NCBI GenBank assembly: GCA_963666975.2
Contig: CAXVYR010000004.1
Location: 672,001 to 736,000 of the forward strand
Direction of reading: 5' to 3'
Length of the DNA stretch: 64,000 nt
DNA from: Terriglobia bacterium
GTDB lineage: Bacteria > Acidobacteriota > Terriglobia > 2-12-FULL-54-10
The notes beneath the pieces are model-generated. The model did not search any database and had not been told where the DNA came from. It was given only the letters and a program-made list of their open reading frames with translations. The translations under genes and the position numbers were made by a program. Positions 24,694-42,628 of this stretch are shown here, piece by piece; positions within the stretch are counted from its first letter, which is position 1; every line of letters begins with the position of its first letter.

Positions 24694-27645
24694 ATGGAGA
24701 TGGGAATGGGAATAGCAAAGGAAGCCCGATGCGTGGGGCTAGCATTTTTGATGGGATGGCTCTTTGTGCATGGAGATGCTCTTTGGGGACAGCAGCAAGA
24801 AACTCAAAGCACAGGGGAAACAGCCACAAGCACCTCGACTGCCTCCAGTCGGATTGACGAAAGCCAGTTAGTCGGATTACCACTCCAAGGGCGCAGTTAT
24901 ACCCAACTGGCTACCCTGGAAGCGGGGGTGAGCGATACATCGGCTACTGCGGCGTCTCGTGGGATTGGCGGTGGAGGGTTGAACGTGGCAGGGGGACGGA
25001 ATACCTCCAACATCTTCTTGCTGGATGGGACCAATATCATGACTCTTGGTAATATCGTCCCGCGAAGCGCAGCCGGAGTGCAACTGGGTTCTGATGCCGT
25101 CTTGCAGGTCCAGGTGTTCAGTACCACCTATTCCGCTGAATATGGCCGGGGCAGCGGCGGGATTCTGAACACCATCACGCGTTCGGGAACGCCCGAGTTT
25201 CATGGGACCTTGTTTGAGTACTTTCGCAATAGCAAGCTCGATGCTCGTAACTTTTTCGACCCGGGTGAGCCTCCTCCCTTCAAACGCAACCAGTTCGGTT
25301 TCACCTTTACCGGCCCGATCCGGAAGGAAAGAACTTTTTTTATGGGTAGCTTTGAGGCGATGCGTGACCGGTTGACGGACACTGATGTCAGCTTCTTTCC
25401 CGATCGAGAGGCGCGGCAGGGAATCATCACGGATAGAGACGGAATCGTGACTCGAACCATCGAGAGGGTGAACCCCGACGTAATTCCCTATTTGAACCTA
25501 ATGCCTATTCCCAATGGGGATCGGGTGGGTGGAGGAGTCGGAGAGAATCGCGCCGCACGGTTTCTGCCGACGGATGAGAATTTTTTCACGGTTCGCCTGG
25601 ATCATGAAATTTCCCAGCGCGACAGCTTGTTCGCTCGCTACACTTTTAGCGATGCCACCAGCAACTCCCCTGCAGACTCCTTCCTCTTTAAGAGGTTCGC
25701 CGAAAGCCGCCAACAGTATCTGACCCTGGTGGCGTCCCATATTTTTAGTTCCCGGACACTGACTTCATTCCGTTTTGGGTATACTCGGCCGACGAGTAGA
25801 GCCGACACATTCTCGTCCATTGAGATTCCCGAATCACTGTTTTTTGTTCAGGGAGGGCCCAGGTTTGGGCGAATCGAGATTCCCAGCCTGACGACCTTGG
25901 GAACGTTTACTACCCTTCCCGAAGTCAACATCGTGAATACCTTCCAATTTGCGGATGACGTGGTGGCTCAAAGAGGGTCTCATGCGCTAAAATTTGGCGC
26001 ACAGCTCCATCGCTACCGTTGGTTTACTTTCTCCAGCCGGAACTTTGGGGGGTTATGGTCGTTTAACAGCCTAGAAAGCTTTTTGGATGGCGGTCCGGAA
26101 GGGGGGAGAGGAACCTCCGTGTCCGTGGCATTGCCTGGTTCCAGCAGTAAGGTTGATTTTCGCCAAACTCTGGCGGGCTTCTACATTCAGGATGAATATC
26201 GAGTCACTCCTCGCCTTCTGCTCAGTCTCGGCTTACGCTATGAATTTATTACTCGCGTCCGGGAAAAGGATGGCCGAAGCCAATTTCTTGTCGACCCGTT
26301 GCGCGATCCGGAGATACAGGTGGGGCACTACATAGCTTCTAATCCTTCTCCTCGATATCCTGTCCCCCGGGTTGGTCTTTCCTGGTCTCCCTGGGGACAT
26401 CGAGATACGGTCATTCGTGGCGGCTTTGGGCTTTTCAACGACCAAATTGTTGAATATTTGGTGGACCGGCCAAAGACTTCGGTGCCATGGTTTCTGCTGG
26501 CGGAGAAACCCAACCTCGGGTCTGAGGAATTCCTCCGCAGTTTCCCTAATATCCTAGAAGTTGCCACCGGAGCATCCGCCAGCGCTCGCGTGATGGATTA
26601 TGAACACATCACGACCCCACGGGTGATGCGGTACAACTTCGCGGTTCAGGATGAGCTTCCAGGAGGGTGGCGAGTGCAGGCATCTTATGTAGGGGCCAGG
26701 GGGATCCATTTGTTTCGGTCCTATGGAGTAAACAAGTTCCCGTTCCCGGAAGTGCGGGAGGATGGGTCTTTGTTCTTCCCGCCGGATCCAAATCTCACTC
26801 CCATCAATCCGGCGTTTCGAAACATTGAAGTTACCAGCAGCGATTCGCAGTCCTTTTACAACTCATTGCAACTTGCTGCCCGCAAAACTGTCGGCCAAGG
26901 GCTTTCTTTGCGGGCTAGCTATAGTTTCGGCAAGTCAGTGGATGATGCTTCCAGGCTGAGCCCGAATGCCCAGTATGGATTTGACCGGACTCTGGAACGG
27001 GGCTTGAGCAGTTCTAATATCCGTCACCGACTTGTGTTTAACTATTTCTACACTCTTCCGTTTGGAAGTGGGCAGCGGTGGTGGAACTCCGGCATTGCCT
27101 CGCGAATATTCCGAGGCTGGCGGCTGGGGGGCATTCTGCGATTTCGTACTGGGACTCCTTTTAACCCGCAAGTGAGCGTTCGGTATCCGGATTTCCTGTT
27201 CGAGCCGACGCGGCCCAACCTGAAGGCAGGCCAAGACCTGAGTAACATAACCGAGGGCGTGACGGCTGGCTGCGGCTTTGATCCGGAAACCGGCAGGTTT
27301 GTGGTAGAGCCAGGTCAGATGTTGGGAACTCGGGAGCTATATTTCGACCCCTGCGTATTTGAAGTACCTCCGCCCGGAACCATGGGTAATGTGGGGCGCA
27401 ATACGCTCACTGGCCCGAGCGTATTTAACATGGATCTTTCTATCTCGAGAGAATTTGCGGTGGATTCCAAGAGACGACTTCAATTTCGGGCAGAAATCTT
27501 TAATCTGCCGAACCATACCAATTTTGGTCGCCGCTCTTCCCTGGTTTTCCGTGGTACCGGACGCCGCAACTTGTCAGCAGGAAGAATTACGAGCACTTCG
27601 ACCACTTCGCGGCAGATTCAATTCGCCTTGAGACTTTCGTTTTAG
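24694..27645 (+). CDS. TonB-dependent receptor-like (Oar-type) outer-membrane protein
   Basis: LPLQGRSYTQL, SAEYGR, FEYFRNSKLDARNFFD, C-terminal RQIQFALRLSF. Confidence 0.9.
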   Translation: MEMGMGIAKEARCVGLAFLMGWLFVHGDALWGQQQETQSTGETATSTSTASSRIDESQLVGLPLQGRSYTQLATLEAGVSDTSATAASRGIGGGGLNVAGGRNTSNIFLLDGTNIMTLGNIVPRSAAGVQLGSDAVLQVQVFSTTYSAEYGRGSGGILNTITRSGTPEFHGTLFEYFRNSKLDARNFFDPGEPPPFKRNQFGFTFTGPIRKERTFFMGSFEAMRDRLTDTDVSFFPDREARQGIITDRDGIVTRTIERVNPDVIPYLNLMPIPNGDRVGGGVGENRAARFLPTDENFFTVRLDHEISQRDSLFARYTFSDATSNSPADSFLFKRFAESRQQYLTLVASHIFSSRTLTSFRFGYTRPTSRADTFSSIEIPESLFFVQGGPRFGRIEIPSLTTLGTFTTLPEVNIVNTFQFADDVVAQRGSHALKFGAQLHRYRWFTFSSRNFGGLWSFNSLESFLDGGPEGGRGTSVSVALPGSSSKVDFRQTLAGFYIQDEYRVTPRLLLSLGLRYEFITRVREKDGRSQFLVDPLRDPEIQVGHYIASNPSPRYPVPRVGLSWSPWGHRDTVIRGGFGLFNDQIVEYLVDRPKTSVPWFLLAEKPNLGSEEFLRSFPNILEVATGASASARVMDYEHITTPRVMRYNFAVQDELPGGWRVQASYVGARGIHLFRSYGVNKFPFPEVREDGSLFFPPDPNLTPINPAFRNIEVTSSDSQSFYNSLQLAARKTVGQGLSLRASYSFGKSVDDASRLSPNAQYGFDRTLERGLSSSNIRHRLVFNYFYTLPFGSGQRWWNSGIASRIFRGWRLGGILRFRTGTPFNPQVSVRYPDFLFEPTRPNLKAGQDLSNITEGVTAGCGFDPETGRFVVEPGQMLGTRELYFDPCVFEVPPPGTMGNVGRNTLTGPSVFNMDLSISREFAVDSKRRLQFRAEIFNLPNHTNFGRRSSLVFRGTGRRNLSAGRITSTSTTSRQIQFALRLSF

Positions 27646-27870
27646 AGTTACTGGCTGAGTTGTTCAAAAGGGTTTCCTTCGGTACAGGGAACCAAACACG
27701 AAAATAATGAGGGTTCAATGGGAGTCCAATTCCTATCGCGCCAAGCGAAGCGACGGTACTGTCAAGTTAACGGTTTGAGCTCCTTGTGAACGCTTCATGG
27801 CAGTCTCTAAGTTGTTGATTCTTCGTTCCTGAGCGGACCGATTTCGCCTCGACAACGGGGGAGATTTCCC

Positions 27871-28509
27871 TTAACTTGACAATACCGTCGAGGTAGTCAC
27901 ATCCAGCACAGCTTTCAAAGTACCGCGTACGCCGGGCGGAAAGTGATCTGCAAATTGCCACAATCGCTGATGATTGAGCGTGGAAAGATCGATCTCGTCC
28001 CACGGGATTTCTTTTCCTTTCAAGCGCCGGTAATAGATCCAATCGAGCAGCGCCTTCTCCGGATAGGCTAAGATGGTCTCAGCTCCACTTGTGGTTCTCA
28101 CCTGCTCGAAGCCGAAGAACCGTTGGTCAGAAAAATGGATGTAGGAGATCTCGCCGAGGAAAGTTTCCACTCGGCGTGGGCGCCCTATCGTCACGCAGGT
28201 CAGGGTGGGAGTAACCTGCTGAGTCAGTCCGTGATAACTGAGTGCCCAATCGAGAGACAAATAGGCAGGAGGAAATAAAATTACGGCCAACTGCTCTCCT
28301 TGGGGACTTTTCAGGAGATTGGCATAGAGCCTGGGACCAACACGGCGCAACAACCCTACCTGCTGGTTGCGCCAGCAGACCTGACGGACGGCAGAGTCCT
28401 TCAACCCCGTCAGTTTTGCTAGGGATGTCACGGTGAGGAAATCGCCTTCTGGGCTCGGCAGATCTCGCAAAATAGACAACCAATTTCTCGTGGTAACGTA
28501 ACGCTTCAT
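27871..28509 (-). CDS. abiEi: Type IV TA antitoxin, AbiEi-like
   Basis: wHTH N-terminus; PAYLSLDWALSYHGL..Q, AYPEKALLDWIY. Confidence 0.85.
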   Translation of the reverse strand: MKRYVTTRNWLSILRDLPSPEGDFLTVTSLAKLTGLKDSAVRQVCWRNQQVGLLRRVGPRLYANLLKSPQGEQLAVILFPPAYLSLDWALSYHGLTQQVTPTLTCVTIGRPRRVETFLGEISYIHFSDQRFFGFEQVRTTSGAETILAYPEKALLDWIYYRRLKGKEIPWDEIDLSTLNHQRLWQFADHFPPGVRGTLKAVLDVTTSTVLSS

Positions 28510-29282
28510 AGCTTTGTGAAAGGCTTGAGTAGGTTCCTCACCGACCGAACGAGGCTCGCATAGTTGTCCTTGCGAAGCTTGTTAAGCCAGGGCGTCGGCA
28601 GGAGAGGAGCAAGATCGGCTTCGAGCCTGCTCGGGCTGATGAGTTTGAGTCTCCTCTGGATTTCAAGGTCCTCGATTTCTTCCAAAGCAAGCCAGTGCTC
28701 AAACTCCCGCTTGTCCAGCTTGGCTTCGAGATTCAGCAGATACCACAGATCGAACACATCCCGGGCCTTGAGGAATTTTCTTTTTAATAACGTCTTGATT
28801 TTGAGGAAGAGAAGTTCGTCGAGGACGGGACAGACCACGACTTCGCTTGCCAGCGATTCGGATCGGAGAAGTTTTGTCTCCGTTCGGCCTACTGCGCCGG
28901 CGATGCGGCTGAATTCGAGCACGACCATCCGACGGCTTGCCAGCCGAATATCTATGGTTGCCGGTTCCAGGCTGCGCACCCGACAATCAATGGGTTGCCT
29001 AAGAAGAGCGGCTAAGGGCAGGAGCCTCCGCTCCAGGCTTCCCGAGATTTTGGCTAAATCCCCGGAGTGCAATATTCGCAGGGGAAAGAGATCAACATCC
29101 CGGGAGTACCGAGGGCTGTCATAGAGGAGATGCAAGACATTACCCCCAATAAAGATGGCCAGATCCGGAAATACGCGGAAGAATACGAGCAAAGATTCGC
29201 GGGCTAGCGTGGATCCCAATGCATGGTCCTCTGCAACGCCTTGCTCCCGGGCTTGCCGGCGAATTTGCTCCCATAGGTTCAT
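28506..29282 (-). CDS. abiEii: Type IV TA toxin, AbiEii-like nucleotidyltransferase
   Basis: FIGGNVLHLLYDSPRYSRDVD, KIKTLL.R..ARDVFDLWYL. Confidence 0.85.
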   Translation of the reverse strand: MNLWEQIRRQAREQGVAEDHALGSTLARESLLVFFRVFPDLAIFIGGNVLHLLYDSPRYSRDVDLFPLRILHSGDLAKISGSLERRLLPLAALLRQPIDCRVRSLEPATIDIRLASRRMVVLEFSRIAGAVGRTETKLLRSESLASEVVVCPVLDELLFLKIKTLLKRKFLKARDVFDLWYLLNLEAKLDKREFEHWLALEEIEDLEIQRRLKLISPSRLEADLAPLLPTPWLNKLRKDNYASLVRSVRNLLKPFTKL

Positions 29283-29618
29283 GGCAATATTATAACAATT
29301 ATGTAGATAAAATGAAATATACTTAGCGGGACCTCAACCAAGCATATTCCATAATTCTTTATTAAATTCTGGCGGCTATGACCTTGCCGCCCTCGGTGGC
29401 TGATGGGCCGCGGAGCTGCTGGGACGAGTTGAACGCCTACCACCGCTTTTAGCAGCCCCTCCAGCAAATCGCTCATGACCCAGAAAGCTTCGGTGTCCGA
29501 TCAGCTGGCGTTAGGGTTGGGGATTTAGCTACCGTCTTCCTGGAGGCACCCCTTTCATGACATGACATAAGCGAGAAACAGCATGAGAGTGTGGATACGG
29601 TGGCTTTGTTTCGCAAAA

Positions 29619-30515
29619 TCAGCTTTCGCTGGAGACGCCCACTCTGATAGATGGAGGAACCGCTTTGCCCTTCCTCTGTCGCTGTAATTGCTCTAGCTGA
29701 CTCATCGCACGATGCAGCTGCCGCTCAATCGTCGTCTCGTAGCGAAGGATTTTGTCCAGCACATCCTTAGAGGGGAGGTGGAGCCTGGAGAGCTTTGACT
29801 CCAGCCGCAGGTTCTCATGTGCCTCGGTCCTCCGCCGTAAGTCTTCTAACCTTTCTTGCTCCTCATTAAGTTCCTGTAGGATGCTCTTCTTGCACTTCCT
29901 GGGAACGCCGCCGACATGATCCGGTTCAGCGGCCTCCACTGGATTGAAGGCGCGGCACCGGTTAGCAAGATGCTCTTCATCGTCTCCAAAGTACTCCGTG
30001 AGCCGCTTGTGGCCACTCTCGGAGAGATAGCCGATCTGTTTAACGTCCTCTTTGATCTCTTCCAGAAGATCAATTAGATACTCCAATCCCATGGAACTGT
30101 CCCGCAGGCCCCACCGGATGTAATATGAGTCGGAGTAAATTGCACGTTCAACCTTTTCAATTTGCTCGGAATTTTCTTTCTGCTCTGCGGTGTCCAGTTC
30201 ATTTCGTATCTCCCCGATCTCGCACCGTAGTACTCGGCGTAGCCTCCAGTAGCAAATGGCGATTTTCTCAACCTGCATCTCTTCAACGATGCCTTTGGGC
30301 TGTCTATCAACTCGGAGTTGAGCAAGCAGGCCATTAAACTCGGCCTTGTTCTCCTTGCCGTCGCCGGCTTGAATCAAAACCTCCTGAGCTAAAAGTCCGT
30401 GTTTTAGGGCATTCCACCTGACCACCTTCTTTCCCTCCAGTGTTCTCGGCCCGGTGGATCGGCGGGCATTCCGCCGGTTCGCCTCAATCTTCTCAAATGA
30501 GGTATTCCTTGCCAT
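29619..30515 (-). CDS. Phage/MGE-associated hypothetical protein (ANRRNA..STGPRT..GK..NALKHG family)
   Basis: Characteristic N-terminus and C-terminal RYETTIERQLHRA; GGAGG RBS. Confidence 0.75.
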   Translation of the reverse strand: MARNTSFEKIEANRRNARRSTGPRTLEGKKVVRWNALKHGLLAQEVLIQAGDGKENKAEFNGLLAQLRVDRQPKGIVEEMQVEKIAICYWRLRRVLRCEIGEIRNELDTAEQKENSEQIEKVERAIYSDSYYIRWGLRDSSMGLEYLIDLLEEIKEDVKQIGYLSESGHKRLTEYFGDDEEHLANRCRAFNPVEAAEPDHVGGVPRKCKKSILQELNEEQERLEDLRRRTEAHENLRLESKLSRLHLPSKDVLDKILRYETTIERQLHRAMSQLEQLQRQRKGKAVPPSIRVGVSSES

Positions 30516-30767
30516 GACTGTTCCTCCAGATTGATGATCGCCCCACAGAGCTCCGCACGGCATCACGTGAGATGATAGCGAAGAGCCCGATCCCAAGTGG
30601 AAGCCAAAGGATCCCGGGGCTTAAAGGAACTATAGGGAGTTACGGTTGCTCATATAAGGCACGCAACGGAAATATTCCCTTTGGCTGCATACCCCAATGA
30701 AAAGGTTTGAGCCGAAAAGTCCCAAGTCTGTTCCTATCCCAAACGTTCGGCGAACACAGGCTTAGGG

Positions 30768-31471
30768 CTACATCAGCCTAAAGGTTGTGTGCTTTCTTTT
30801 GCGCCAGGCCTTTTGGGCCCTAGTGGGATGATCGAGGGCTTTGTTTGGATGCAACTGCTTTTGGACATAATTGATGAGCGTGCCAACTTCTTTGTCGCAA
30901 TAGGTCCCTGTCCGTAAATGGACTTCCCTGGTAAGATGCGTTCTCTCATAATTGCACCAACCGTCCCGCAAGGTCTGGGGATTTTTAAATGGACTTCCCT
31001 GGTAAGATGCGTTCTCTCATAATTGCACCAACCGTCCCGCAAGGTCTGGGGATTTTTGTTTAGACGTTGAATATCCTTCAGGAAAGCAGCACAGGGTTCG
31101 AGGTTTTCTTGCAAAGCTGAAAGATGGTCAATGAAGCGCCTCCAATGAATATTAGTAGGAGATGAAGCAAGGGCTTCTGTATCGAATTTGTCCAACTGGC
31201 GGGCCATCTTGCTCATGTTTTGGTATAGCGACCTTATTTCCCATCGCTTAGTGCCCTTGGGTTTAATGACATCCCAGGCCGACTTTCGGTCACTCACCAC
31301 TAGAAGCGTGGAAATGTATGTTTTCAATGTCACGGGGTCCATCCCTTTTATGCATAGACTCACCGCTGAATTCAGAGCGGGTTCGTCGTCCCCGAATAAC
31401 TCAACCAATTCTGGATACCTAGCCGTGTCTTCTTGGAGCGCTTTTCCCCGGCGGAGCTTCTGGTTGGGCAC
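30768..31471 (-). pseudogene. Hypothetical protein frameshifted by a 71-bp tandem duplication
   Basis: Removing one repeat copy joins the 31471 ORF to the 30768 ORF tail; GGAGGT RBS. Confidence 0.65.
30916..31057. repeat. Exact 71-bp tandem duplication
   Basis: 30916-30986 equals 30987-31057. Confidence 0.95.
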
Positions 31472-31859
31472 GGTTCACCTCCCGAGTAAAATCCGATTTG
31501 AAATGGGTCGGCGGGCCATCCAGAAGAAGCCGCTTTTCAGGCGACGCCAGCCGATATCGTACAATTCCCTGTAATTGTAATATTTCCTGTCACTCAGGGT
31601 CATTCACCACACTAAGATCGGTCTCTATGAACTAAGATCGCTGTTTCCGCTTAGGTCCTAAGAATATTCGTATGCAGGCTATTGTGGATTGGTTGTTCAG
31701 ACTTCTGGCGCGAGATGAAGCGCTCCTAATATTCCTTCAGATGGGTGCGCGACATGCCCTTGAGGATTCCGCGGAATTTTTCCAACGGCTGATCGGGAAA
31801 CGTTGTGATGATGCCGTCTTGTTCGAGCAGCGTGATCTGTTGACCCGGCCTCAGGCAAA

Positions 31860-32065
31860 CTCTTCTTAGCTCCGCACAGTCCGCAATAACTGATGACCCG
31901 CTTCACCGACCGCAAGCGCCGCACCTCACCGAGCTCTAGCACCCACGTCAGGGCCGTAATCAAACCTACGGCAGGGATCGTCCGGAGTCGTTCGACCCGC
32001 TCGGCCAACATCGGATCGCGGGCTAACAAGCGGAGCAAGGCCCTTTCGGTCTTCTGCAGCCGCAC
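31860..32065 (-). pseudogene. IS110-family transposase fragment
   Basis: RLRTIPAVGLITALTWVLELGEVRR..SVKRVISYCGL. Confidence 0.8.
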
Positions 32066-32116
32066 GAGAGTCTCCCAGCAAAGCCGGAGCAGAGGCCAAA
32101 ATCCTTCCTCGATCGG

Positions 32117-32230
32117 TCACGCAACGACGAGGGATACTTTGCCATGGTTCTTGCTAGTGGGTCTGACGGTGATCTCCACATCTTGTCCCAGGGCGGTGAG
32201 AAAGTCCATCAGGCGGCTCGACGGAGAAGG
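32117..32230 (-). pseudogene. 3' fragment of XRE-type antitoxin
   Basis: FSVE(shift)RLMDFLTALGQDVEITVRPTSKNHGKVSLVVA*. Confidence 0.6.
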
Positions 32231-32271
32231 CTCCGGACTGGCCGCGCTTGAGGCTGGAAACGTGCGGCTGC

Positions 32272-32404
32272 CATCTGCACTTCAATCTGCCGCAGGATCG
32301 TTACGATCTGTTCTGGTTTGTAATTCCTTATTGGCATGACCTGACTTCCTCCTCAAGTGGATTCTCTCTCTTTCCACTTTGTACAAAAGGGGCCGGTCAG
32401 GTCA
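32272..32404 (-). mobile_element. IS3-family left end remnant
   Basis: TGACCTGACCGGCCCCTTTTGTACA; MPIRNYKPEQIVTILRQIEVQMA, related to the 20.5 kb relic. Confidence 0.8.
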
Positions 32405-32502
32405 GACTGGAGGTTCGCTGAAAAAAGAGTCCAGGCGGCCAGTTTTTATTCCTCTCTTTTGGTTGGTCTCTTGGGAGGACGGAGGAACTGGTGCGGGATT
32501 GT

Positions 32503-32706
32503 CTATTGGTCCTTTTCCTTTGGTCGCCGTTGGGAAAGGAAGTGCTGGAAATACTTGGGGCCTTCCTTTTCGTAAGACTCGATACCGTAAGTGAGAAACA
32601 TCTCGCACACCTGCGAAATACTTCTGGCTTCGTGCCTCGCAACTCTTTCTAGACTCTTCTTCAGTTCAGCAGGAATGCGAAATCCTAGCGGCGCGTCCTT
32701 TTTCAT
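32503..32706 (-). CDS. Ribbon-helix-helix regulator, divergent from the recombination operon
   Basis: MKKDAPLGFRIPAELKKSLERVARHEARSISQVCE. Confidence 0.8.
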   Translation of the reverse strand: MKKDAPLGFRIPAELKKSLERVARHEARSISQVCEMFLTYGIESYEKEGPKYFQHFLSQRRPKEKDQ

Positions 32707-32709
32707 AGC

Positions 32710-32800
32710 CAACAATTGTAAGAGAATCTCCACAACATTCCAACAATTCTCTTGACAAGAAAAATAACCAATGTATTATAATGTTATAGATTGTTATAGG
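32710..32800 (+). promoter_or_regulatory. Divergent promoter/operator region
   Basis: TTGACA at 32752 with TATTAT at 32774 or TATAAT at 32777; repeated AACAAT and TGTTATA words. Confidence 0.65.
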
Positions 32801-32808
32801 AGTGCAGC

Positions 32809-33585
32809 ATGAAACGAAAAAGTTCCTCAAAACACTTACTGTTTAGGAAGAATCTCCGGATTACGAAAAAGTTGTGGCCCAGTGCAGTCAGTAAGGATCA
32901 GGCTGAAGGATTGGAAGCACTTACCGCTAGATACTTGTTTTCTGTTGCCATAGGCGATTTAATCCTCCTCGATGGCAAATGGTACGTCACCCACGCTGGC
33001 CTACTGCGCTTGGCCACCCGCAGTCGTTGTTCCGGCATCCGAGTGCAGCCAGTGCGTGAGTTCTGCGACGCCTCCACGAGCCGTTGGGTCTTCAAAGCGA
33101 CCGTTTACAAGTCCCCTCGGTCGAAAGGCTTCGTCGGTTACGGCGACGCCGATCCCTCCAATGTTTCCTCCTTGGTCCGCGGAGCCGAGATGCGCATGGC
33201 CGAAACCAGAGCCGTCAACCGGGCCCTCCGCAAGGCCTATGGGATCGGGCTGTGTTCAGTGGAGGAGATCGGGTCCTTCCCTCCCCCAAGCAAACCTACC
33301 AGTGACTCTGTAAAAGCTCTCACACAAATTGCGAAGATCGTCCCCGGCAACGGCCAACCGCGACTCCGCGATCGGCTCTGCCAGTTGATCCGCCAATACA
33401 GTCTGGATCCCACTCTGGTCAAACACTACGCAGCGGATTTCTGCGAAACCGAGAACCTGCGCGACGCCACCCGGGACCGCGTTGAAGCCTTTATTAAGAA
33501 TTTGGCTGAGCAGGCAGCCAAAGATCGAGCCGGGCTCCTATGCCAGCTTAACAGCTACGTACAGCCTCGGGAGGTGAAACCATGA
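32809..33585 (+). CDS. Putative ssDNA-annealing (Rad52-like) protein
   Basis: YVTHAGLL, FKATVY, GYGDA.P.NV, MAETRAVNRALR; lies upstream of SSB-like and exonuclease genes. Family call is recalled, not searched. Confidence 0.55.
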   Translation: MKRKSSSKHLLFRKNLRITKKLWPSAVSKDQAEGLEALTARYLFSVAIGDLILLDGKWYVTHAGLLRLATRSRCSGIRVQPVREFCDASTSRWVFKATVYKSPRSKGFVGYGDADPSNVSSLVRGAEMRMAETRAVNRALRKAYGIGLCSVEEIGSFPPPSKPTSDSVKALTQIAKIVPGNGQPRLRDRLCQLIRQYSLDPTLVKHYAADFCETENLRDATRDRVEAFIKNLAEQAAKDRAGLLCQLNSYVQPREVKP

Positions 33586-34004
33586 GACGTGAAATCCCAG
33601 GCCTCCACCAGAAAGCACAGTATAAGGACGAGATTCCGGAGGGCCTCTTCCTGGTCCGGGTCGAGCGGGCCTTCTACCGCTACCATCCGCAGAAGCCCTT
33701 CTTTGCAGTTCGCTTTGCTGTCATCCAGCCCGAGGAGTTTACTGGAGAGGCGTTGCCTGGCCGGCTCTACTGTACCCCCAAAGCCCTGTGGAAGCTCAGA
33801 TGGTTCCTGTGTGACTTCAGCTATGACGCAGAATTGTTTGGCCGGGATGTGATCGATGAAAAACTTCTCCTCGGCCTCCGCGGGATCATCAAGGTCTCCC
33901 ATACCACAATCAACGGCCGTTCCTTTCTCAATCTGGATGGCTTTGCCTCAGCGGATAAGTGGGAGGAGCTTTCAGCCTCTCCTGTCGGCAGCCGCGAAAG
34001 CTAG
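33582..34004 (+). CDS. Putative phage-type ssDNA-binding protein (DUF669-like OB fold)
   Basis: IPEGLFLVRVE..FAVRFAVI..KALWKLRWFL..LLGLRGIIKVSH; ATGA overlap with the upstream gene. Confidence 0.5.
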   Translation: MRREIPGLHQKAQYKDEIPEGLFLVRVERAFYRYHPQKPFFAVRFAVIQPEEFTGEALPGRLYCTPKALWKLRWFLCDFSYDAELFGRDVIDEKLLLGLRGIIKVSHTTINGRSFLNLDGFASADKWEELSASPVGSRES

Positions 34005-34014
34005 GAGGAGAGCA

Positions 34015-34818
34015 ATGACCTATAGCTACACCCAGATCAGCCAATACCTGGGCTGTCCCCGCCGCTATCGTCACCGTTATCTAGACGGCTGGAGGGAGAA
34101 GGATGCCCGGGCCGCAATGGTTTTCGGACGGGTGTTTGAGAAAGCCCTAGCCGCGTTTTTCCGCAGAGAGGATAGCGCCGCTGTCCTGTTCAAAGAGTGG
34201 GGAGCCTATCGTGAGGCCTCTTTGGTATACACCACCGGCGATTCCTGGGACCGAATGGTCCGGCAGGGTGTGCAGCTGCTCGAACGATTGGCTCAAGACA
34301 ACCGCATCCGCATCCCCCAACCGCGCCACAACATGCAGGTGAAGCTGCTGCGTCCACTCTCGAACGGGAACGACTTTGTGGCCTATGTCGATGCCATCGG
34401 CTATCTTGACGCCACTCGCTGCCTGATTGAATGGAAAACGACGGGCAGCCGCTACCCGGAACAGCCAGAGGGCTTACTGGCTCTTGATCCTCAGCTTGTC
34501 TGCTACTCCTGGATCAGCGGTATTGCAGAGGTGGCCATGGTGGTATTTGTACGCAAACGCATGCCAGAAATCCAATACCTGCGCACTTCCATCACTGAAG
34601 AACAACGCCAGGAGTTTGGGCAATTGGTCGAAGAGTCGATTTCTCGGATCGAGGCTGGACGCTTCCTGCCTCACACGGGCATCCGCTTCCCCCAGAATGG
34701 CTGCGTGAGCTGCCCTCACCTGGGTCTCTGCCTGGGGAAGCAAGACCTTGTCGATTCCAAACTGATCCGCCGACCGGGAGCAAGTGACCTTGAATGGCTT
34801 GACCAGCTTGAATACTAA
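34015..34818 (+). CDS. PD-(D/E)XK nuclease, Cas4/AddB-like with a four-Cys cluster
   Basis: SYTQISQYLGCPRRY, YVDAIG, IEWKT, QL..Y, CVSCPHLGLC; AGGAGG RBS. Confidence 0.85.
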   Translation: MTYSYTQISQYLGCPRRYRHRYLDGWREKDARAAMVFGRVFEKALAAFFRREDSAAVLFKEWGAYREASLVYTTGDSWDRMVRQGVQLLERLAQDNRIRIPQPRHNMQVKLLRPLSNGNDFVAYVDAIGYLDATRCLIEWKTTGSRYPEQPEGLLALDPQLVCYSWISGIAEVAMVVFVRKRMPEIQYLRTSITEEQRQEFGQLVEESISRIEAGRFLPHTGIRFPQNGCVSCPHLGLCLGKQDLVDSKLIRRPGASDLEWLDQLEY

Positions 34819-35557
34819 CGAGCGTCCCATCGTGGCTCCGAAACTCAACCACCGCCGGGCTCTTTTCGTGTTAGCCAAGATCGATGAGATCCTATCCTGG
34901 GAGCAAAGGGTGGAGCATGAACGAGACATCCGCTTTGTGGATTTGGGCCGCTACCTGTGCGAAGTCCGCTCCGGCCAGTACTGGCGTCTCGACAAGCTCG
35001 TTTCCTTCGATGAGTTTTTGGAGAAACGCTTCCCAGAGTCTCGGCGCAAGGCTTACTACCTGATGGCTATCCACGAGCATTTGCCAAGGGAAGTGCGAAG
35101 GGAGCTGAAACAAGTGGGCTGGGCAAAGGCGTCTGAGCTCGTCAAGGTAGCTCGTTCAGATGGGCAGGAGTTCGATTGTGCAATCTGGTTGCACAAAGCA
35201 CACTCCATGCCGACCGAGGCTCTCAAGCGGGAGGTCGAACGGCACCTGACGGGAAAAGAGACCGAGCCTTGGGAGATCATCTACTTCAAGGTGTACAAGA
35301 GCCAGTTGCCGGTTGTCGAGCAAGCCCTAGAAACGGCAGGACTGATGCTCGGTACCGATAAATCCCGTGGCTACTGCCTGGAGATGATCTGTGCGGACTT
35401 TCTGGCTGGAGCCAACATTGAAAATGTCAGCTCCGATGCCCTGCTCTTATCCCTCTGCAAGCTTTTCGAGCTTCTTCCTAGCTCGCAGAAAGGGAGGTTT
35501 TTGGAGCAGGTTGATGCAATCCATGATCCAGTTTCATCCCAAGCGACCGCGGATTAG
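34784..35557 (+). CDS. Helical protein resembling the N-terminal part of DUF222/HNH-type proteins
   Basis: SFDEFLE..SRRKAYYL, VGWAKASELVKVA..WL..A...TEALKREV. Confidence 0.55.
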   Translation: MTLNGLTSLNTNERPIVAPKLNHRRALFVLAKIDEILSWEQRVEHERDIRFVDLGRYLCEVRSGQYWRLDKLVSFDEFLEKRFPESRRKAYYLMAIHEHLPREVRRELKQVGWAKASELVKVARSDGQEFDCAIWLHKAHSMPTEALKREVERHLTGKETEPWEIIYFKVYKSQLPVVEQALETAGLMLGTDKSRGYCLEMICADFLAGANIENVSSDALLLSLCKLFELLPSSQKGRFLEQVDAIHDPVSSQATAD

Positions 35558-35762
35558 GCTTGCCAAGGAATCCTACCGAAGCCTGCGCCTACAAGTGCTG
35601 GAGCGGGACGGATGGCGGTGCCAGTCTTGTGGTTCTCTTTCTAACCTGCAAGTTCACCACCTCCAGAGCCGGAGCCATCGGGGGGATGATTCCGGGGAAA
35701 ATCTCCTGACCCTCTGTGCGCAGTGTCATCGAAACGTTCACATCCCAGGGAGAAACCAGTAG
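35523..35762 (+). CDS. Small HNH endonuclease
   Basis: VLERDGWRCQSCG..LQVHH..RS..G.D..NLLTLCAQCH. Confidence 0.9.
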   Translation: MIQFHPKRPRIRLAKESYRSLRLQVLERDGWRCQSCGSLSNLQVHHLQSRSHRGDDSGENLLTLCAQCHRNVHIPGRNQ

Positions 35763-35908
35763 CTGATATGCCCCCGAGGTAGTTCGTAAACGAGAGTTCC
35801 CGGTCAGTAGCGTTTCTTGAAGTCCCTGATCGACAATGCAGTTCCCCTTTGGTGGCGGGAGGATATAAGGGCTGCCGGAGGTGCCGACCTCCGATGCGCA
35901 CCCTCCTC

Positions 35909-36343
35909 CTATCCCTTTTTCTTTTCTGCCCTCTCGAGGATCTTCAGGAACACAGCGGGTGTGATGATTTGAACGTTTCGATACTTCTTCAAGGCCAGGA
36001 GGTCCTTGTCACCGCTCACCACATACCGAGCCTTCCCTTCAAGAGCTGCAGCCAGAAACTTGTCGTCTACGGGATCCCGACTTGCGTGTACCTCGATGGT
36101 TCCCGCCACTAGGTGGCATTCCTGAGCGAGGAGCTCAAGCAACAGGACGATCTCCTGCTCGCTCATCCAGCGGTATCTCTGGAGTTTTTCGTAGAGGAGC
36201 ACGCGTCCGATTTCTTGAAGGATGCTCGGCGAGAGGACTAACTCAAACCCACTGTGCCGCCAGGAGCGGAGGATGCGGTCTTCGTTTCCGCCGCGGATGA
36301 GGGTAGCGGAGACAACAACATTCGTATCGAGAACTGCCCTCAT
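35909..36343 (-). CDS. PIN-domain toxin
   Basis: RAVLDTNVVVSA, RDPVDDKFLAAA, VSGDKDLL. Confidence 0.9.
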   Translation of the reverse strand: MRAVLDTNVVVSATLIRGGNEDRILRSWRHSGFELVLSPSILQEIGRVLLYEKLQRYRWMSEQEIVLLLELLAQECHLVAGTIEVHASRDPVDDKFLAAALEGKARYVVSGDKDLLALKKYRNVQIITPAVFLKILERAEKKKG

Positions 36344-36627
36344 GGGCGAGACGGTCGTACCTGCCGCCGAGCGGCGATGACCGCCTCACGGACTATCTTT
36401 CGCACCTCCTGAGACCGGCTGCTTCTCGTCCGCGATTGCACCGCACTAATGAGCGCGAACAAATGCTCTTGGGATGCTTTCTTTCGAACTTCTCTCGTCT
36501 CGACGTAGAAGCGCAGCGCCTCCCGCAGGAGCTCCGATTTTGTTCGGTTTTCTTCTTGTGCTACCGCTTCGGCTTTCTTGAGTAAGGGTGGCGGGAGCGA
36601 AATTGTCATCAATCTACGGGTACTCAT
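36340..36627 (-). CDS. CopG/RHH antitoxin
   Basis: TISLPPPLL..E.RTKSELLREALR; overlaps the toxin start. Confidence 0.88.
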   Translation of the reverse strand: MSTRRLMTISLPPPLLKKAEAVAQEENRTKSELLREALRFYVETREVRKKASQEHLFALISAVQSRTRSSRSQEVRKIVREAVIAARRQVRPSRP

Positions 36628-36736
36628 AAGAGATGCCTCTTTCAGATTGTCATACAATGCATTACTAGCTTATCATCCAGCCACTTACCGTGTCAAGCGA
36701 CAACCGGACGGCTGCTCCCCTAGTTGGACAGAAGGT

Positions 36737-37045
36737 TTAAGCCGCAGATCGGGGCAGGACCTCGCGCTCGATCCGCTCCCGAAGCGCATCCTCGGCGAGG
36801 TCCAAGTCATATTTAGCTTGCAGATTTATCCACATTTCCGCCGAGGTGCCGAAATACCGCGCGAGCCGCATCGCCGTGTCGGCAGTGATGCTGCGGTCGC
36901 CTTTCAGAATCTGGGTGATCCGATTTGCCGGGATGCGCAGCGCCAGCGCCAGAGCATTGGCGGATTGGCCGCCTTCCTTCAGGATCTCCTGCAACGCCTC
37001 CCCGGGATGAATTGGAGGCAGCTTTCTCCGTTTGCTATGGGGCAT
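36737..37045 (-). CDS. higA: HigA antitoxin
   Basis: PPIHPGE, RSITADTAMRLARYFGTSAEMWINLQAKYDL. Confidence 0.92.
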   Translation of the reverse strand: MPHSKRRKLPPIHPGEALQEILKEGGQSANALALALRIPANRITQILKGDRSITADTAMRLARYFGTSAEMWINLQAKYDLDLAEDALRERIEREVLPRSAA

Positions 37046-37331
37046 ATTCCTTCTCCAAGTGGTAGTCCACGATCTCGACATCGCAGGCATCTCCGGCGCG
37101 CCAGACGAAGCAGATGCGGTACCGGTCATTGATCCGGATGCTGTACTGTCCCTTGCGGTCTCCTTTCAAGGCTTCCAGGCGCAGGCCGGGCAACCTTAAA
37201 TCTCCAAGCGATCGGGCCGCATGGAGAAATCCCAGGCGTACCCTCGCTGTGTGATCGATGGACTGAAACTTCTTGCTGAACTCTCGATTCCATAGCTGCT
37301 GGGTTTCTTTATCCTTGATCGTCCGGATCAT
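37035..37331 (-). CDS. higB: HigB (RelE-family) toxin
   Basis: MIRTIKDKET..RLEALKGDRKGQYSIRINDRYRICF..VEIVDYH. Confidence 0.92.
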   Translation of the reverse strand: MIRTIKDKETQQLWNREFSKKFQSIDHTARVRLGFLHAARSLGDLRLPGLRLEALKGDRKGQYSIRINDRYRICFVWRAGDACDVEIVDYHLEKEYAP

Positions 37332-37531
37332 ACCTAGGGCATAGTACGCCACGCATAAAGAACCTGTCAAGCTAAGATACCCGGTGCTGATTACCGGCGG
37401 CTATCGCTCGGCCGAGTTGAACCGCAAAGTCGGCGGCGCGTCCGTTAGCTACCACTGCGCCACGCCGACCCGTTGTGCCGCCGACATCCAGGTGCCAGGC
37501 TTGGCGCTCGCAGAGCTCTTCCGGTGGCTGT

Positions 37532-37615
37532 GCTGGGCAAAGGCGGCTGAGCTAGTCAAGGTCGCTCGTTCGGATGGGCAGGAGTTCGATTGTGCAATCT
37601 GGTTGCACAAAGCAC
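37532..37615 (+). repeat. About 84-bp diverged copy of 35118-35201
   Basis: gctgggcaaaggc..gtcaaggt.gctcgttc.gatgggcaggagttcgattgtgcaatctggttgcacaaagcac. Confidence 0.9.
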
Positions 37616-37785
37616 GATGCGAAGTGGCTGCCGAGGACCGGGAACCGAAAACCGGCATGCAGCTACCGGGGCGCCTCCAGGCGGGCACTTAGAATTGAAA
37701 GTAGGGGAAGAACTTGATAGCGATGGTGTTACAATCACTTGTACGTATGAGATTTGAACCCAAATCGAAAAGAGGGGTAGATAGG

Positions 37786-38022
37786 ATGGGCACAACTATC
37801 AAGGCTCGTTTTTCTGCCGGCGTCTTGAAACCTTTGGAAAAGCTGGAGCTCGGGGAAGGTGAGGAGGTCACTGTTACCATTGTAACTTTGCCCCCCTCAA
37901 CTCCTGCAGACTGGTTGAAGCGAACTGCCGGTGGTTGGGAAAGGCTAGTCGATGCAGAAAAGTTTAAGCGGGAAGTTTATGAGAGCCGTCTGTTAACGAC
38001 CCGCCCAGAACCCCGGCTATGA
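37786..38022 (+). CDS. AF2212/DUF104-like antitoxin
   Basis: TIKARFSAGVLKPLEKLELGEGEEVTVTI. Confidence 0.8.
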   Translation: MGTTIKARFSAGVLKPLEKLELGEGEEVTVTIVTLPPSTPADWLKRTAGGWERLVDAEKFKREVYESRLLTTRPEPRL

Positions 38023-38265
38023 CATTGGCTTCCTTCCTCATTGACACCGACTGACCAGGAGGCTTACCGGCAACTACGGCAGCAAGTATTTGAAAGAGAT
38101 GGATGGCGCTGCCAAAGCTGTGGGCGCTTGAGAGATCTGCATGTGCATCATATACAGCCCCGCAGCGCACAGGGAAATGATCTCGAAGGGAATTTGATTA
38201 CCCTGTGCACGACTTGTCACTATAACCTTCATCTACAGAAGAAAAGCCTTCCAACAATAGGTTAG
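38019..38265 (+). pseudogene. Truncated PIN toxin start (MTLASFLIDTD*) joined to a second HNH copy
   Basis: ATG overlaps the antitoxin stop; the following EAYRQLRQQVFERDGWRCQSCG..HH..NLITLCTTCH is a paralogue of 35523. Confidence 0.7.
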
Positions 38266-38407
38266 ACCTGGGGTATGTGAGTCGAAGCTTCGTGTTCCCC
38301 CAAGCATGGGTGAATTCAACGCGGCCGCTATCATACGATTCACATTCAGAACAGCAAGACGGATTCCAGTCTTTTGGGCATGGCAGTTGGCAGACGTGCC
38401 CTGAAAT

Positions 38408-39658
38408 CTACCGTTTAATACTCTTTACCACCCATTCAAGCAAAGCACTATATTCCTTGGCAGTTCTCTTGCGAGAAAGCTTGTTTACCGCATATTGACG
38501 ACCATTCCGACCAAGCGTTTGTCGCAGTTCATGATTGTTATAGAGCTGTTTAATTGCGCTTACCAGTACAGTTGTGTTTTCAGGTTCAACGTAGATTCCT
38601 GCGCGCGCCTCTTCCAGAAGCTCGCGGGCCTGCCCGTCTACACCCAGAATCACGGGACGACCGCAGGAGAGAAACTCCAGCATCTTCGTTGGGATCACAG
38701 TCTGGAAGATGTCGGCTTTCCTAAGCACGACCAGGCAAACATCCGAGGCTCGGATCACGGCCGCTATTTTTTCGCGGGGCTGCTGGGAAATAAAACGCAC
38801 GTTTCCCAACTTTCTTTCGCGCGCCGCCTGAATCAAACGGTCCTTTTCAGCTCCCTCACCCACAAAGAGAAACACAATATTCGGTTCGGTTTGCTCCAGC
38901 CTGGCCGCAGCTTCCAGCACGACACCCAACCCGTGGGCCGCCCCTATGGTCCCAATAAAAGACACAACAAATTTTCCCAGAAGAACCAAATCACTCTTCC
39001 AATCCGTTCCGTCGCTCTCCGGGGCGAACAGGTCCGTTTCCACACCGTTTTGCACTACGGAAATTTTTTCCGGATTCACCTTCCACTGGGAAACCAGTTC
39101 CCTCTTGAAGGCTGGCGTGACAACTACGATATGGTCCGACGTGCGGTAAAGAAAGGCGGCCAATTTCTGCAAAGTCGAGTACAGTAGTGATTGCTTGCCT
39201 CCGATTCCGGAGGCGAAAATGGATTCCGGCCACAGGTCCCGGATTTCCAGGATGAAGGGAACGCGCTTCACCCGGCTCAGCCACCAAGCCGTCAGGCCGA
39301 CCAAAAGCTGAGGGGAGGTCCCGATCACCACGTCCGGCCGGGCTAACATGCTCCCCGTCAGACAGGAGGAGAAAAAAAACGAAGCGTAATTCAGGACTCT
39401 CTCGAGAGGCTTCCGGTTGGGCAGAGGCAGTAGCCAGGTGCGTACCACATTCACCCCGCCCAACTGCTCTCTGCTGACTAGCCGCCGGAACCGGGACCGA
39501 TACTCCGGCAGCACGACACCAGTGGGGTGGTTGGGGAAACCGGTGAGGACGGTAACCTGGTGGTTTGCCCTCACCCAGTGAAGGGATAGTTCCGACACAC
39601 GGGCGGCTGGTGCGCCCATCTCCGGCGGGAAATATTGCGATACATAGAGAATTTTCAT
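38408..39658 (-). CDS. Glycosyltransferase family 4 (WbuB-like)
   Basis: MKILYVSQYFPPEMGA, EIRDLWPES, PTKMLEFLSCGRPVI. Confidence 0.92.
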   Translation of the reverse strand: MKILYVSQYFPPEMGAPAARVSELSLHWVRANHQVTVLTGFPNHPTGVVLPEYRSRFRRLVSREQLGGVNVVRTWLLPLPNRKPLERVLNYASFFFSSCLTGSMLARPDVVIGTSPQLLVGLTAWWLSRVKRVPFILEIRDLWPESIFASGIGGKQSLLYSTLQKLAAFLYRTSDHIVVVTPAFKRELVSQWKVNPEKISVVQNGVETDLFAPESDGTDWKSDLVLLGKFVVSFIGTIGAAHGLGVVLEAAARLEQTEPNIVFLFVGEGAEKDRLIQAARERKLGNVRFISQQPREKIAAVIRASDVCLVVLRKADIFQTVIPTKMLEFLSCGRPVILGVDGQARELLEEARAGIYVEPENTTVLVSAIKQLYNNHELRQTLGRNGRQYAVNKLSRKRTAKEYSALLEWVVKSIKR

Positions 39659-41539: not shown

Positions 41540-42628
41540 TCAGGCAGCCATTGGGGTGTGATAGAGGCCTCGGCAGTGGCTTTGCCATCTATAGGAATGG
41601 AGATTGGCGACTGGTCTTGGTATAGGCGCGTCTTGGTCAGGGGTTCGCCCTTCCAGTCCAGTATGCGAGCGATGCGCATTGAAATATGTCTTGAAATCGA
41701 GCAGCTTGTTTTCCAGATCCGCCGTGGTCCAGAACAACGTGCGATCCAAATACTCGCGTCGAATCGTGCCAATCATCCGTTCCACAAAGGGATGGGACAG
41801 GGGAACATAGGGGACGGTTTTGATCTCGGTCACCTCCAGTATCCGCAGATTGGCTTGCCACTGCCCAAACCGATAAAGGGGATCATGGTCGGAGCTGAGG
41901 TAGTTTGGCATCCAGCGTTGCCATCGAATGGCACGGTTGAACATCCGGCAAAGTGCGACACCATCGACGGTTCCGGCATGGACGCCGAACCCAATGATTC
42001 GGCGGGTGAATTGATCCATGACGACCAAGACCCAGTGGGTCCGCAACGTGGCCGATTCGCACCGGAACAGATCTAGACTCCAGAGGCTGTCTTTCATGTG
42101 GCCCAGGAAGGTCAGCCAGGATGGACCACCGGAGTCCTTTTCCGGCCGATAGTGGCTGGCGAGAATCCTTCGAACAACGTCTTTGTCGATGGCGATGCCG
42201 AAAGCCAAGGCAATCTGCTGAGCAATTCGCGGACAGCCCCAGGCGGGATTGAGCTGCTTCATCTGGACGACGGCTTCGATGAGTTCTTTGCTGGGCCCCT
42301 TTGGTCCGGGTTTACCTCTGCGCTTGGATGAAAAGAGAAGGCGATATTTTCGATTCCTCATAACCTGGTGGAAGTTCAGGAGAGTCGAAGGTTTCAGTAC
42401 GATTGCTGAATGGATCAGGCGGGCGGGGCGAATGAGGAGAGCACACAAACCGGCGACGAGGCGATCTGAAGTGAGTAGATTGGGTGACCGCTGCCGCGAA
42501 CGATTGAGGATCAGGAGTTGTTGCTTGACCAGAACGGACTCGGCGACCACAGAACGGATGCCGCCCGGACCCAAGAGTCGGGAGAGAGTAGCCATGACAT
42601 GGACGAAAAGGATGACGAGATCGCGCAT
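41540..42628 (-). CDS. Integrase-core (rve, DDE) transposase; element end probably TGT at 42695
   Basis: WGCPRIA, LWSLDLF, SDHDPLY, FVERMIGTIRREYLD, YFNAHRSH. Confidence 0.88.
   Translation of the reverse strand: MRDLVILFVHVMATLSRLLGPGGIRSVVAESVLVKQQLLILNRSRQRSPNLLTSDRLVAGLCALLIRPARLIHSAIVLKPSTLLNFHQVMRNRKYRLLFSSKRRGKPGPKGPSKELIEAVVQMKQLNPAWGCPRIAQQIALAFGIAIDKDVVRRILASHYRPEKDSGGPSWLTFLGHMKDSLWSLDLFRCESATLRTHWVLVVMDQFTRRIIGFGVHAGTVDGVALCRMFNRAIRWQRWMPNYLSSDHDPLYRFGQWQANLRILEVTEIKTVPYVPLSHPFVERMIGTIRREYLDRTLFWTTADLENKLLDFKTYFNAHRSHTGLEGRTPDQDAPIPRPVANLHSYRWQSHCRGLYHTPMAA

Follow-up and report, generated by a model that had tools for sequence, protein, structure and literature searches.

A probable phage-derived single-strand annealing recombination cassette living as a discrete, multi-copy unit in Terriglobia chromosomes

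The single-strand annealing (SSA) modules of phages bring together, in one repressed early operon, an annealase, a nuclease acting on double-stranded DNA ends and sometimes a cognate protein that binds single-stranded DNA (SSB) (PMC11611040, PMC5928155). Free-standing HNH homing endonuclease genes of phages, such as mobE of T4, and nuclease genes lying at the boundaries of genetic exchange are likewise described (PMC2790892, PMC10448857). We analysed a stretch of 64,000 nucleotides from a Terriglobia bacterium (contig CAXVYR010000004.1, positions 672,001 to 736,000 of the forward strand; hereafter the window) that contains a five-gene operon, g1 to g5, divergent from a gene for a candidate ribbon-helix-helix (RHH) repressor. 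We read this operon, with moderate confidence, as a phage-derived SSA recombination cassette which selection maintains in Terriglobia chromosomes and which occurs there as a discrete unit in several copies. Its features are listed below; these positions, and those given later for neighbouring genes, are positions in the window.

32503..32733, minus strand: candidate repressor of the RHH type (Arc/CopG-like), 76 amino acids, divergent from the operon (PHROG match).
32752..32802, plus strand: predicted promoter, with the −35 sequence at 32752-32757, the −10 sequence at 32774-32779, tandem 10-mers at 32780-32799 and GGAG at 32799-32802 (consensus matching and sequence reading).
32809..33585, plus strand: g1, predicted single-strand annealing protein (SSAP) with a fold of the Rad52/Erf/RecT superfamily and a C-terminal helical domain, 258 amino acids (model, Foldseek).
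33582..34004, plus strand: g2, predicted SSB-like protein with an oligonucleotide/oligosaccharide-binding (OB) fold, PrgE-like, 140 amino acids (model, Foldseek).
34015..34818, plus strand: g3, predicted RecB/Cas4-like PD-(D/E)XK nuclease with a four-cysteine motif of the Fe-S type (PF12705, conserved residues).
34784..35557, plus strand: g4, conserved protein, probable partner of the g3 nuclease (phrog_17202, fusions with g3).
35514..35762, plus strand: g5, small HNH endonuclease of about 80 amino acids with a CxxC...CxxC zinc site (PF01844).

The first-pass annotation of this DNA had proposed an RHH repressor opposite a strong promoter and five tightly coupled genes, and all the open reading frames (ORFs) were found where it had placed them. 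The g3 ORF as listed opens at 33856; we set its start at methionine 34015 because both the Pfam match and the relatives begin there. The listed g5 ORF opens at 35391 and its start was placed at about 35514. Genes g1 and g2 overlap by 4 nucleotides, g2 and g3 are separated by 10, g3 and g4 overlap by about 30 and g4 and g5 by about 40, and a divergent intergenic gap of 75 nucleotides lies between the RHH gene and g1. In this gap, TTGACA and TATTAT, spaced by 16 nucleotides (32752-32779), match the consensus at 11 of 12 positions and form the top promoter-like site within 31500-38500, an interval in which the count of promoter-like sites (6, compared with 3.3±2.1 in shuffles) is not significant. 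The two tandem 10-mers that follow (32780-32789 and 32790-32799) are identical at 9 of 10 positions and constitute a candidate operator for the RHH protein, and the GGAG motif sits six bases 5' of the g1 ATG. That the operon layout goes beyond chance follows from the recurrence of the identical gene order in essentially all of 80 related loci. No CRISPR-like array was found and no Cas1 among the ORFs scanned from 14.7 to 52.3 kb, in agreement with what had been noted from the sequence; the tRNA search found none, and Rfam gave no match in 27000-39000.

The g1 family has at least 8000 relatives in the protein collection, all of them unnamed; the best 120 are 64-81% identical, contain no Pfam domain and bear only the name "hypothetical protein". 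When contigs representing one genome per species were searched, at least 518 cassette loci were confirmed among at least 597 pattern matches, and we fetched the best 80 (referred to by L-numbers). Of these, 79 are Acidobacteriota-lineage records, nearly all of them from Terriglobia, and one is from Dormiibacterota. The cassette, about 3 kb long, thus recurs in hundreds of genomes of soil Acidobacteria. Fifteen assemblies contributed 2-5 loci each; one pair of loci, L058 and L059, is 99.7% identical over 10 kb and is possibly an assembly duplicate. The order g1-g2-g3-g4-g5 is constant in every fetched locus holding more than g1, and all five genes are uninterrupted in 58 of the 74 loci that are not cut by a DNA end (51 by the strict test and 7 flagged only for their natural stop codon). 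The components are of known kinds; as a package that stands alone, occurs in several copies and is found Terriglobia-wide, the cassette is without description in the searchable literature, where we found no published account of it (subscription journals lay outside the coverage).

The limits of the cassette are sharp. Similarity between copies at the DNA level (88-93%) runs from within g1, or sometimes from the regulator, to the stop codon of g5 and no further, and the sequences and genes outside this block are unrelated between copies. No position is conserved in the 80 nucleotides past the g5 stop in 71 copies, which speaks against the classical site-specific homing that had been considered for the module. 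No terminal inverted or direct repeats were found at the cassette ends, and neither Pfam nor PHROGs revealed a transposase or integrase gene inside the cassette.

We then looked at each of the predicted products, beginning with the proposed annealase. No Pfam family matched g1 at E≤1 and none was found in NCBIfam or PADLOC; there was no profile match above the gathering score to the Pfam SSAP families Rad52_Rad22, Erf, RecT and SSAP_Sak, and two phage relatives of g1, gp34 of phiT1 and API480_49, are likewise without a match to a Pfam SSAP family. Atlas gave weak leads only (0.87). The AlphaFold (AF2) model of g1, built from 44 relatives, has a predicted local distance difference test score (pLDDT) of 70 and a predicted template modelling score (pTM) of 0.34, with a beta-beta-beta-alpha core at residues 85-144. 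When this model was compared with the BFVD viral models by Foldseek, 10 matches were obtained at E≤1e-3, and the named proteins among the top 50 matches were, with a single exception, all SSAPs (Erf, RecT, Bet, Rad52/22, Sak3). No individual match to the PDB was significant; Mgm101, RAD52 and Red-beta were among the top ones. The distant phage relatives of g1 adjoin SSB, Gam-like, helicase and replication genes. We accept the predicted g1 product as an SSAP at the level of the fold only, and as lying outside every described SSAP sequence family; at that level the annealase assignment made at first reading stands.

For g2, no family was found in Pfam at E≤1, nor any in PHROGs, NCBIfam or PADLOC; its sequence profile did not match the bacterial SSB family (PF00436) or any PDB sequence. 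The AF2 model (pLDDT 80, pTM 0.75) displays the five-strand-plus-helix topology of an OB fold, and its best Foldseek match in the PDB is PrgE of pCF10 (E value 8e-6, probability 1.0, TM-score about 0.6), followed by many classical SSBs at E values of 0.03-0.1. At their C-terminus, most relatives of g2 have D-[LV] as the last residues and an aspartate that is nearly invariant close by; the copy in the window ends otherwise. On the basis of the model, g2 appears to be the SSB-like protein that had been anticipated, with an OB fold closest to that of the plasmid SSB PrgE and with DNA binding as its predicted activity.

The g3 product matches PF12705 (1.8e-16, 61 bits for a cut-off of 22) and the exonuclease family phrog_1218 (1.2e-11). 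Across 30 sequences, residues C14, C230, C233, C239, D126, K141 and Q160 are invariant and Y164 is nearly so, meaning that the Fe-S-type PD-(D/E)XK nuclease recognized in the first-pass annotation is borne out by the profile and by four invariant cysteines. The match to the cas4 model TIGR00372 (18.8 bits) is far under its cut-off of 65. The nuclease gene lies two genes downstream of g1 in the same operon, and its predicted role is that of an exonuclease.

The g4 product was more difficult to place. It has no Pfam match at E≤1, and it matches phrog_17202 (1.2e-12), a family whose function is unassigned in PHROGs. Among 31 relatives, DUF3102 appeared weakly in 9 (best E value 0.025) and was the sole family to appear at E≤5. 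A profile search of 1.84 billion representatives returned 3843 matches, of which the best 150 all belong to one family and many are fragmentary or chimeric; the relatives from phages and plasmids are all unnamed. Longer relatives were informative: 31 of 36 g4-containing proteins of more than 450 amino acids are g3-g4 fusions, and in many of these, about 503 amino acids long, both partners are near-complete; g5 is included in 2 of the 36. Because the longer relatives mostly fuse g4 to g3 and seldom include g5, our reading is that g4 is probably a partner or C-terminal module of the g3 nuclease. It is also the most constrained of the five genes, with a median ratio of nonsynonymous to synonymous substitution rates (dN/dS) of 0.07. 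In two database proteins, P0301 and P0302, the g4 part is preceded either by a ParB-N domain plus a DNA methylase or by a Ser/Thr kinase domain; these could be junctions between a cassette fragment and a host gene, or artefacts of assembly or frameshift.

The last gene, g5, matches PF01844 (4.5e-10, 40 bits for a cut-off of 21.4), and residues C36, C39, H48, H49, N63, C68, C71 and H72 are invariant in 25 sequences, with the catalytic and zinc sites intact. Judged by profile and residues, g5 is a bona fide HNH endonuclease, as proposed. The earlier suggestion that g4 and g5 together form a split DUF222-HNH homing endonuclease, with the operon acting as a homing module into a specific empty site, fared less well. 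That g5 is a true HNH protein, that g4 and g5 overlap and are co-transcribed, and that g5 is present in L024 and absent from L010 at one orthologous site would all suit it. A DUF222 signal is, however, absent from g4 at E≤1 and from its 31 relatives at E≤5, the fusion counts tie g4 to g3, and the 71 copies have no conserved edge sequence; we consider this explanation very improbable.

We then studied the selection acting on the cassette. The median dN/dS, estimated from 15 close pairs hand-picked from the tree (14 for g5), 7 of them within one assembly, was 0.22 for g1, 0.10 for g2, 0.11 for g3 and 0.19 for g5, beside the value already given for g4; all five genes are under purifying selection. 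In the same pairs the synonymous divergence (dS) of g1 and g5 was often several-fold above that of g2-g4. In the pair L068/L080, dS was 0.82 for g1 and 0.15 for g5, compared with 0.12-0.20 for g2-g4, and in the pair L015/L068 it reached 2.9 for g5 with a core at 0.2-0.3. From this higher dS it follows that the ends of the block, namely the regulator with the N-terminus of g1 on one side and g5 on the other, have been swapped among lineages with greater frequency than g2-g4, the core. The regulator itself is variable. In the window, the RHH protein matches the Arc-like repressor family phrog_3431 (1.3e-8), and the Pfam families RHH_5 and Arc at E values of about 0.01, under the cut-off. Over the 80 loci, the regulator slot is occupied by an RHH gene in 27 (plus 3 with both), by an HTH_3 gene in 14, and by one or the other of two small proteins without a name in 11 and 3, respectively; nothing recognized was found in the slot in 22.

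A FastTree tree of about 2.5 kb, midpoint-rooted, was made from 70 loci and the window; L004, L005, L009, L022, L032, L033, L050, L058, L066 and L069 were omitted because g1-g4 was not fully spanned in them. One assembly has five copies, which group in a single clade; another has three, each in a different and distant clade. In two related assemblies the copies are interleaved, a pattern indicating old duplications that were vertically inherited.

Decayed and nested copies are also found. L040, L053, L063 and L081 each have partial copies beside full ones, and several loci contain solitary HNH genes. An older copy in L053 is split into two complementary halves, which break at the same point in g4 and flank about 8 kb that contain an F3-family gene (see below), an RHH gene and a full cassette. 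The window shows the same kind of remains downstream of its operon, as two further features.

37529..37615, plus strand: 87 nucleotides left of another, decayed g4, with 94% identity to 35115-35201 (nucleotide similarity).
38041..38265, plus strand: second, solitary HNH gene with 62% protein identity to g5 (PF01844 at 4.1e-11; tblastn).

The piece of g4 belongs to a chimeric ORF (37384-37692) in which an endolysin-like Peptidase_M15_3 fragment of about 57 amino acids (37384-37554), matched by both Pfam and PHROGs, is in frame with g4 codons ~111-139; the junction at 37529 between the M15 fragment and the g4 fragment involves cassette sequence. The solitary HNH gene is probably the remnant of a second cassette copy. 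We also considered an insertion hotspot in g4, as three junctions lay at codons ~108-112 (37529 in the window, both halves in L053, and L081). This candidate was dropped: in 150 representative proteins, a sample biased by score, the junctions are spread over codons ~70-125. In L081, a HigBA pair adjoins the g4 fragment.

Taken together, the discrete block in unrelated contexts, the diverged intact copies within a genome, the mosaic ends and the nested or chimeric remnants make us favour a selfish element. The cassette is probably selfish or mobile, and it most likely persists as a selfish element that is spread by recombination and not by an integrase or transposase; such an element accords better with the population pattern than do a plain family of host genes or prophages decaying repeatedly.

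The first of these rivals is that the cassette is the early region of a decayed prophage or phage satellite, that is, a recombination module left over from Terriglobia phages and devoid of mobility of its own. Several proteins of the operon match PHROG families (the RHH protein, g3 and g4, for example), distant relatives of g1 and g4 lie in phage or phage-plasmid genomes beside replication or recombination genes, the varied content of the repressor slot is reminiscent of phage immunity regions and, in the window, the M15 endolysin fragment is found 1.6 kb downstream. In addition, a solitary gene for a large terminase (phrog_38, 3.8e-121) is located 1-4 kb upstream in 5 of the 80 loci (L018, L032, L036, L041 and L045; coordinates L041:3735-5192 and L045:3772-5346), separated from the cassette by one or two small genes, of which one matches phrog_26239 and one gives a weak match to a small terminase. 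No portal gene follows these lone terminases; in L045 the next gene is L-2-hydroxyglutarate oxidase-like, a metabolic gene. The rest of the surroundings also speaks against this rival. No phage structural gene or integrase is present in the window from 27.8 to 38.3 kb, as the first-pass annotation had it. Flanks of 8 kb were complete in 57 loci; from these we drew 16 at random and compared 146 of their 151 flanking ORFs of at least 150 amino acids with PHROGs. One large terminase, one tyrosine integrase, a few transposases and two matches to tail-labelled domains were found. Up to 8 kb from the cassette, none of the 16 loci contained a module for portal, capsid or tail, and the related operons are not routinely part of complete prophages. 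Most flanking genes are ordinary ones, with products such as glycosyltransferases, kinases, outer-membrane barrels and two-component systems. Had each locus decayed independently, some 70 contexts would not have retained an identical set of five genes ending at an identical right edge, the g5 stop, nor would up to five copies per genome have stayed under purifying selection. Among 50,697 phage records, g2 had no match, and the matches of g1 and g4 were only remote. We therefore regard a prophage remnant as unlikely.

One of the sampled loci deserves separate mention. In L012, the sole locus of the 16 with an integrase beside the cassette, a tyrosine integrase gene (11186-12364, minus strand; phrog_1, 2.8e-30) follows downstream of g5 at a distance of about 270 bp, with a gene of the primase/helicase-like type (13004-13945, plus strand) nearby.

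The second rival is a host-beneficial system, either a domesticated SSA pathway for double-strand-break repair or an anti-phage module, duplicated in the manner of paralogous families. In its favour, purifying selection acts on all five genes, orthologous sites show inheritance by vertical descent, the copy in the window resides among defence and toxin-antitoxin genes (AbiEi/AbiEii, PIN-RHH, HigBA), and PADLOC 2.0 gave domain-level matches of g3 and g5 to its Cas4, ZorE and DpdF models. On the other hand, no PADLOC 2.0 model matched g1, g2 or g4 and there was no system-level match; the flanks of the other loci are mostly metabolic, envelope and regulatory, not defence islands. Selfish elements, more typically, have a tight repressor, swappable regulator and HNH alleles, chimeric ORFs and many copies that are decayed or nested, as seen here. 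A role beneficial to the host seems to us quite improbable, less so than the split homing endonuclease.

Several observations weigh against our own interpretation of the cassette as a selfish, phage-derived unit. No terminal repeats and no flanking target or site preference were detected, and no known mobility mechanism is indicated; the sharp edges of the cassette, moreover, fall on start and stop codons. The lone terminases and the endolysin fragment of the window point to phage ancestry and are equally compatible with a decayed prophage remnant. The orthologous loci L010 and L024, whose flanks and cassette are both 90-93% identical, were simply inherited vertically, the divergence of the cassette being like that of its flanks; about 460 bp that include g5 are missing from L010, a difference seen in this pair only. 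No near-identical copies were found save the possible assembly duplicate, and no movement was seen. Because no other two copies are near-identical, any spread of the cassette is old or rare. Some "broken" copies or fusions may be artefacts, since long-read assemblies carry indel errors. At the protein level, the g1 model is moderate by the scores given above, its TM-scores to SSAPs are low (0.2-0.36) and it matches no Pfam SSAP family; the g4 profile found nothing among PDB sequences.

From the folds and motifs of the predicted proteins we infer how a selfish cassette of this type could operate. The repressor would hold the operon off until derepression. The HNH protein g5 would then nick or cut DNA, g3-g4 would resect the 5' strand, g2 would coat the 3' tail and g1 would anneal this tail to complementary single-stranded DNA, either in another copy or in exposed lagging-strand DNA. 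The outcome would be a gene conversion or an insertion, by which the cassette is copied or the DNA between copies is rearranged. A stronger proposal is that the cassette represents a new class of mobile element free of integrase and transposase, which spreads within and between Terriglobia genomes solely with its own HNH protein, Fe-S exonuclease complex, SSB and annealase, by breaking and resecting DNA and annealing it into exposed single-stranded DNA or resident copies. This proposal would account for the lack of terminal repeats and of a target motif, for the nested and split copies, for the chimeric ORFs and for the mosaic ends; it is in our estimation unlikely.

The window offers an ordinary source of rearrangement as well. 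Two copies of an IS256/Mutator-family insertion sequence (IS), at 9452-10902 and 43511-44961, are 1451 bp long, 100% identical and inverted, and they bracket about 32.6 kb that contain the cassette; the transposase at 43608-44909 matches PF00872. This pair could form a composite-transposon-like structure or serve as a substrate for inversion. A fragment of an IS110 transposase is located near the cassette (31697-32065) and an rve-type IS transposase farther out (41540-42628). The first-pass annotation had named the module as a candidate engine for the mosaic junctions of the window; the identical IS256-family copies, together with the other IS genes, offer an ordinary explanation of them, although the junction at 37529 does involve cassette sequence.

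Toxin-antitoxin and abortive-infection genes are clustered round the cassette (27871-29282, 35909-36657, 36737-37370 and 37714-38022), the members being AbiEi/AbiEii, a PIN protein with an RHH antitoxin, HigB/HigA and an AF2212-like small protein. Upstream of the cassette, a perfect tandem duplication of 71-72 nucleotides (30915-31057) lies within the ORF 30773-31471, and an ORF of 1122 amino acids (10873-14241, minus strand) contains about 10.5 tandem units of 168 nucleotides (56 amino acids) with 79% identity (12095-13866).

Some gene families recur upstream of the cassette, one of which has a member in the window.

29619..30596, minus strand: u325, member of the F3 family, recurring upstream as an accessory and not a core gene (relatives in 21 of 80 loci).

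The relatives of u325 are found 1-4 kb upstream of the cassette in these 21 loci, mostly on the opposite strand. They are 300-350 amino acids long and have a conserved N-terminal motif, STGPRT..GK..NA.KHG (for example L053:4335-5219 and L062:4355-5353); for u325 itself, searches of Pfam, PHROGs, NCBIfam and PADLOC and of PDB sequences all came back empty. The F5 family (400-570 amino acids) is upstream in 16 of the 80 loci (for example L016:5354-6739, minus strand) and contains a P-loop-like conserved stretch, with weak AAA/ORC-Cdc6-like Pfam matches in 3 of 13 members. The upstream families F3, F5, F21 and F22 gave no family-level match in Pfam or PHROGs and the representatives scanned gave none in NCBIfam; the F3 and F5 profiles found nothing among PDB sequences. 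A conserved stretch of 80-110 nucleotides at the far end of the upstream arm was at one point considered as a separate feature; it corresponds to the 3' end of the F3 gene with a conserved hairpin, and this stretch also occurs alone in some loci. On the other side of the cassette, the sequence right after the g5 stop in L079 (~10971-11010) resembles, by eye, the 3' end of a tRNA with a T-arm and a CCA-like end.

Few soil bacteria are as abundant as the Acidobacteriota, a phylum about whose mobile DNA little is known and for which there are almost no genetic tools. An abundant, unannotated unit of five genes present in several copies per genome merits a name and a function. If the cassette does move or convert DNA with its own enzymes, this would be a mode of mobility outside the integrase and transposase classes that surveys count. 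A native set of annealase, SSB and exonuclease is also a candidate for recombineering in Terriglobia. Finally, the cassette adds, on our assignments, an SSAP sequence family, a second lineage of PrgE-like SSBs and the nuclease partner g4.

How the cassette compares with known systems can be stated component by component. The best structural match of g2, PrgE, is an atypical OB-fold SSB of the Enterococcus plasmid pCF10 with 16-18% sequence identity to g2; both are on mobile DNA, g2 in a recombination operon and PrgE in a conjugation operon. With the Cas4, AddB and RecB Fe-S nucleases, g3 shares the D...(D/E)xK, QxxxY and C...CxxCx5C motifs; it differs from Cas4 in falling under the equivalog cut-off, in having no CRISPR array or cas1 nearby and in being paired or fused with g4. 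Like the free-standing HNH homing genes of phages, g5 is small and stand-alone, sits at the edge of an exchanged block and undergoes allele replacement, but here the element to be mobilised would be a whole recombination operon in a bacterial chromosome. The DUF222-HNH proteins of the mycobacterial REP13E12 family are encoded by a multi-copy genomic repeat that specifies an HNH protein; in contrast to them, g4 does not resemble DUF222, and its link is with the nuclease rather than with the HNH protein. The closest overall likeness, an operon of annealase, nuclease and SSB with a repressor, is to the phage SSA modules: Exo/Bet of lambda Red, RecE/RecT of Rac, Erf of P22 and Sak/Sak4. The predicted fold of g1 is like that of the Erf, RecT, Bet, Rad52 and Sak3 models, whereas its sequence family is outside theirs; the nuclease of the cassette is RecB/Cas4-like, with an Fe-S motif and the additional partner g4, and the HNH gene is a fixed member. 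Unlike these modules, the cassette stands alone in chromosomes, in several copies and with no phage around it.

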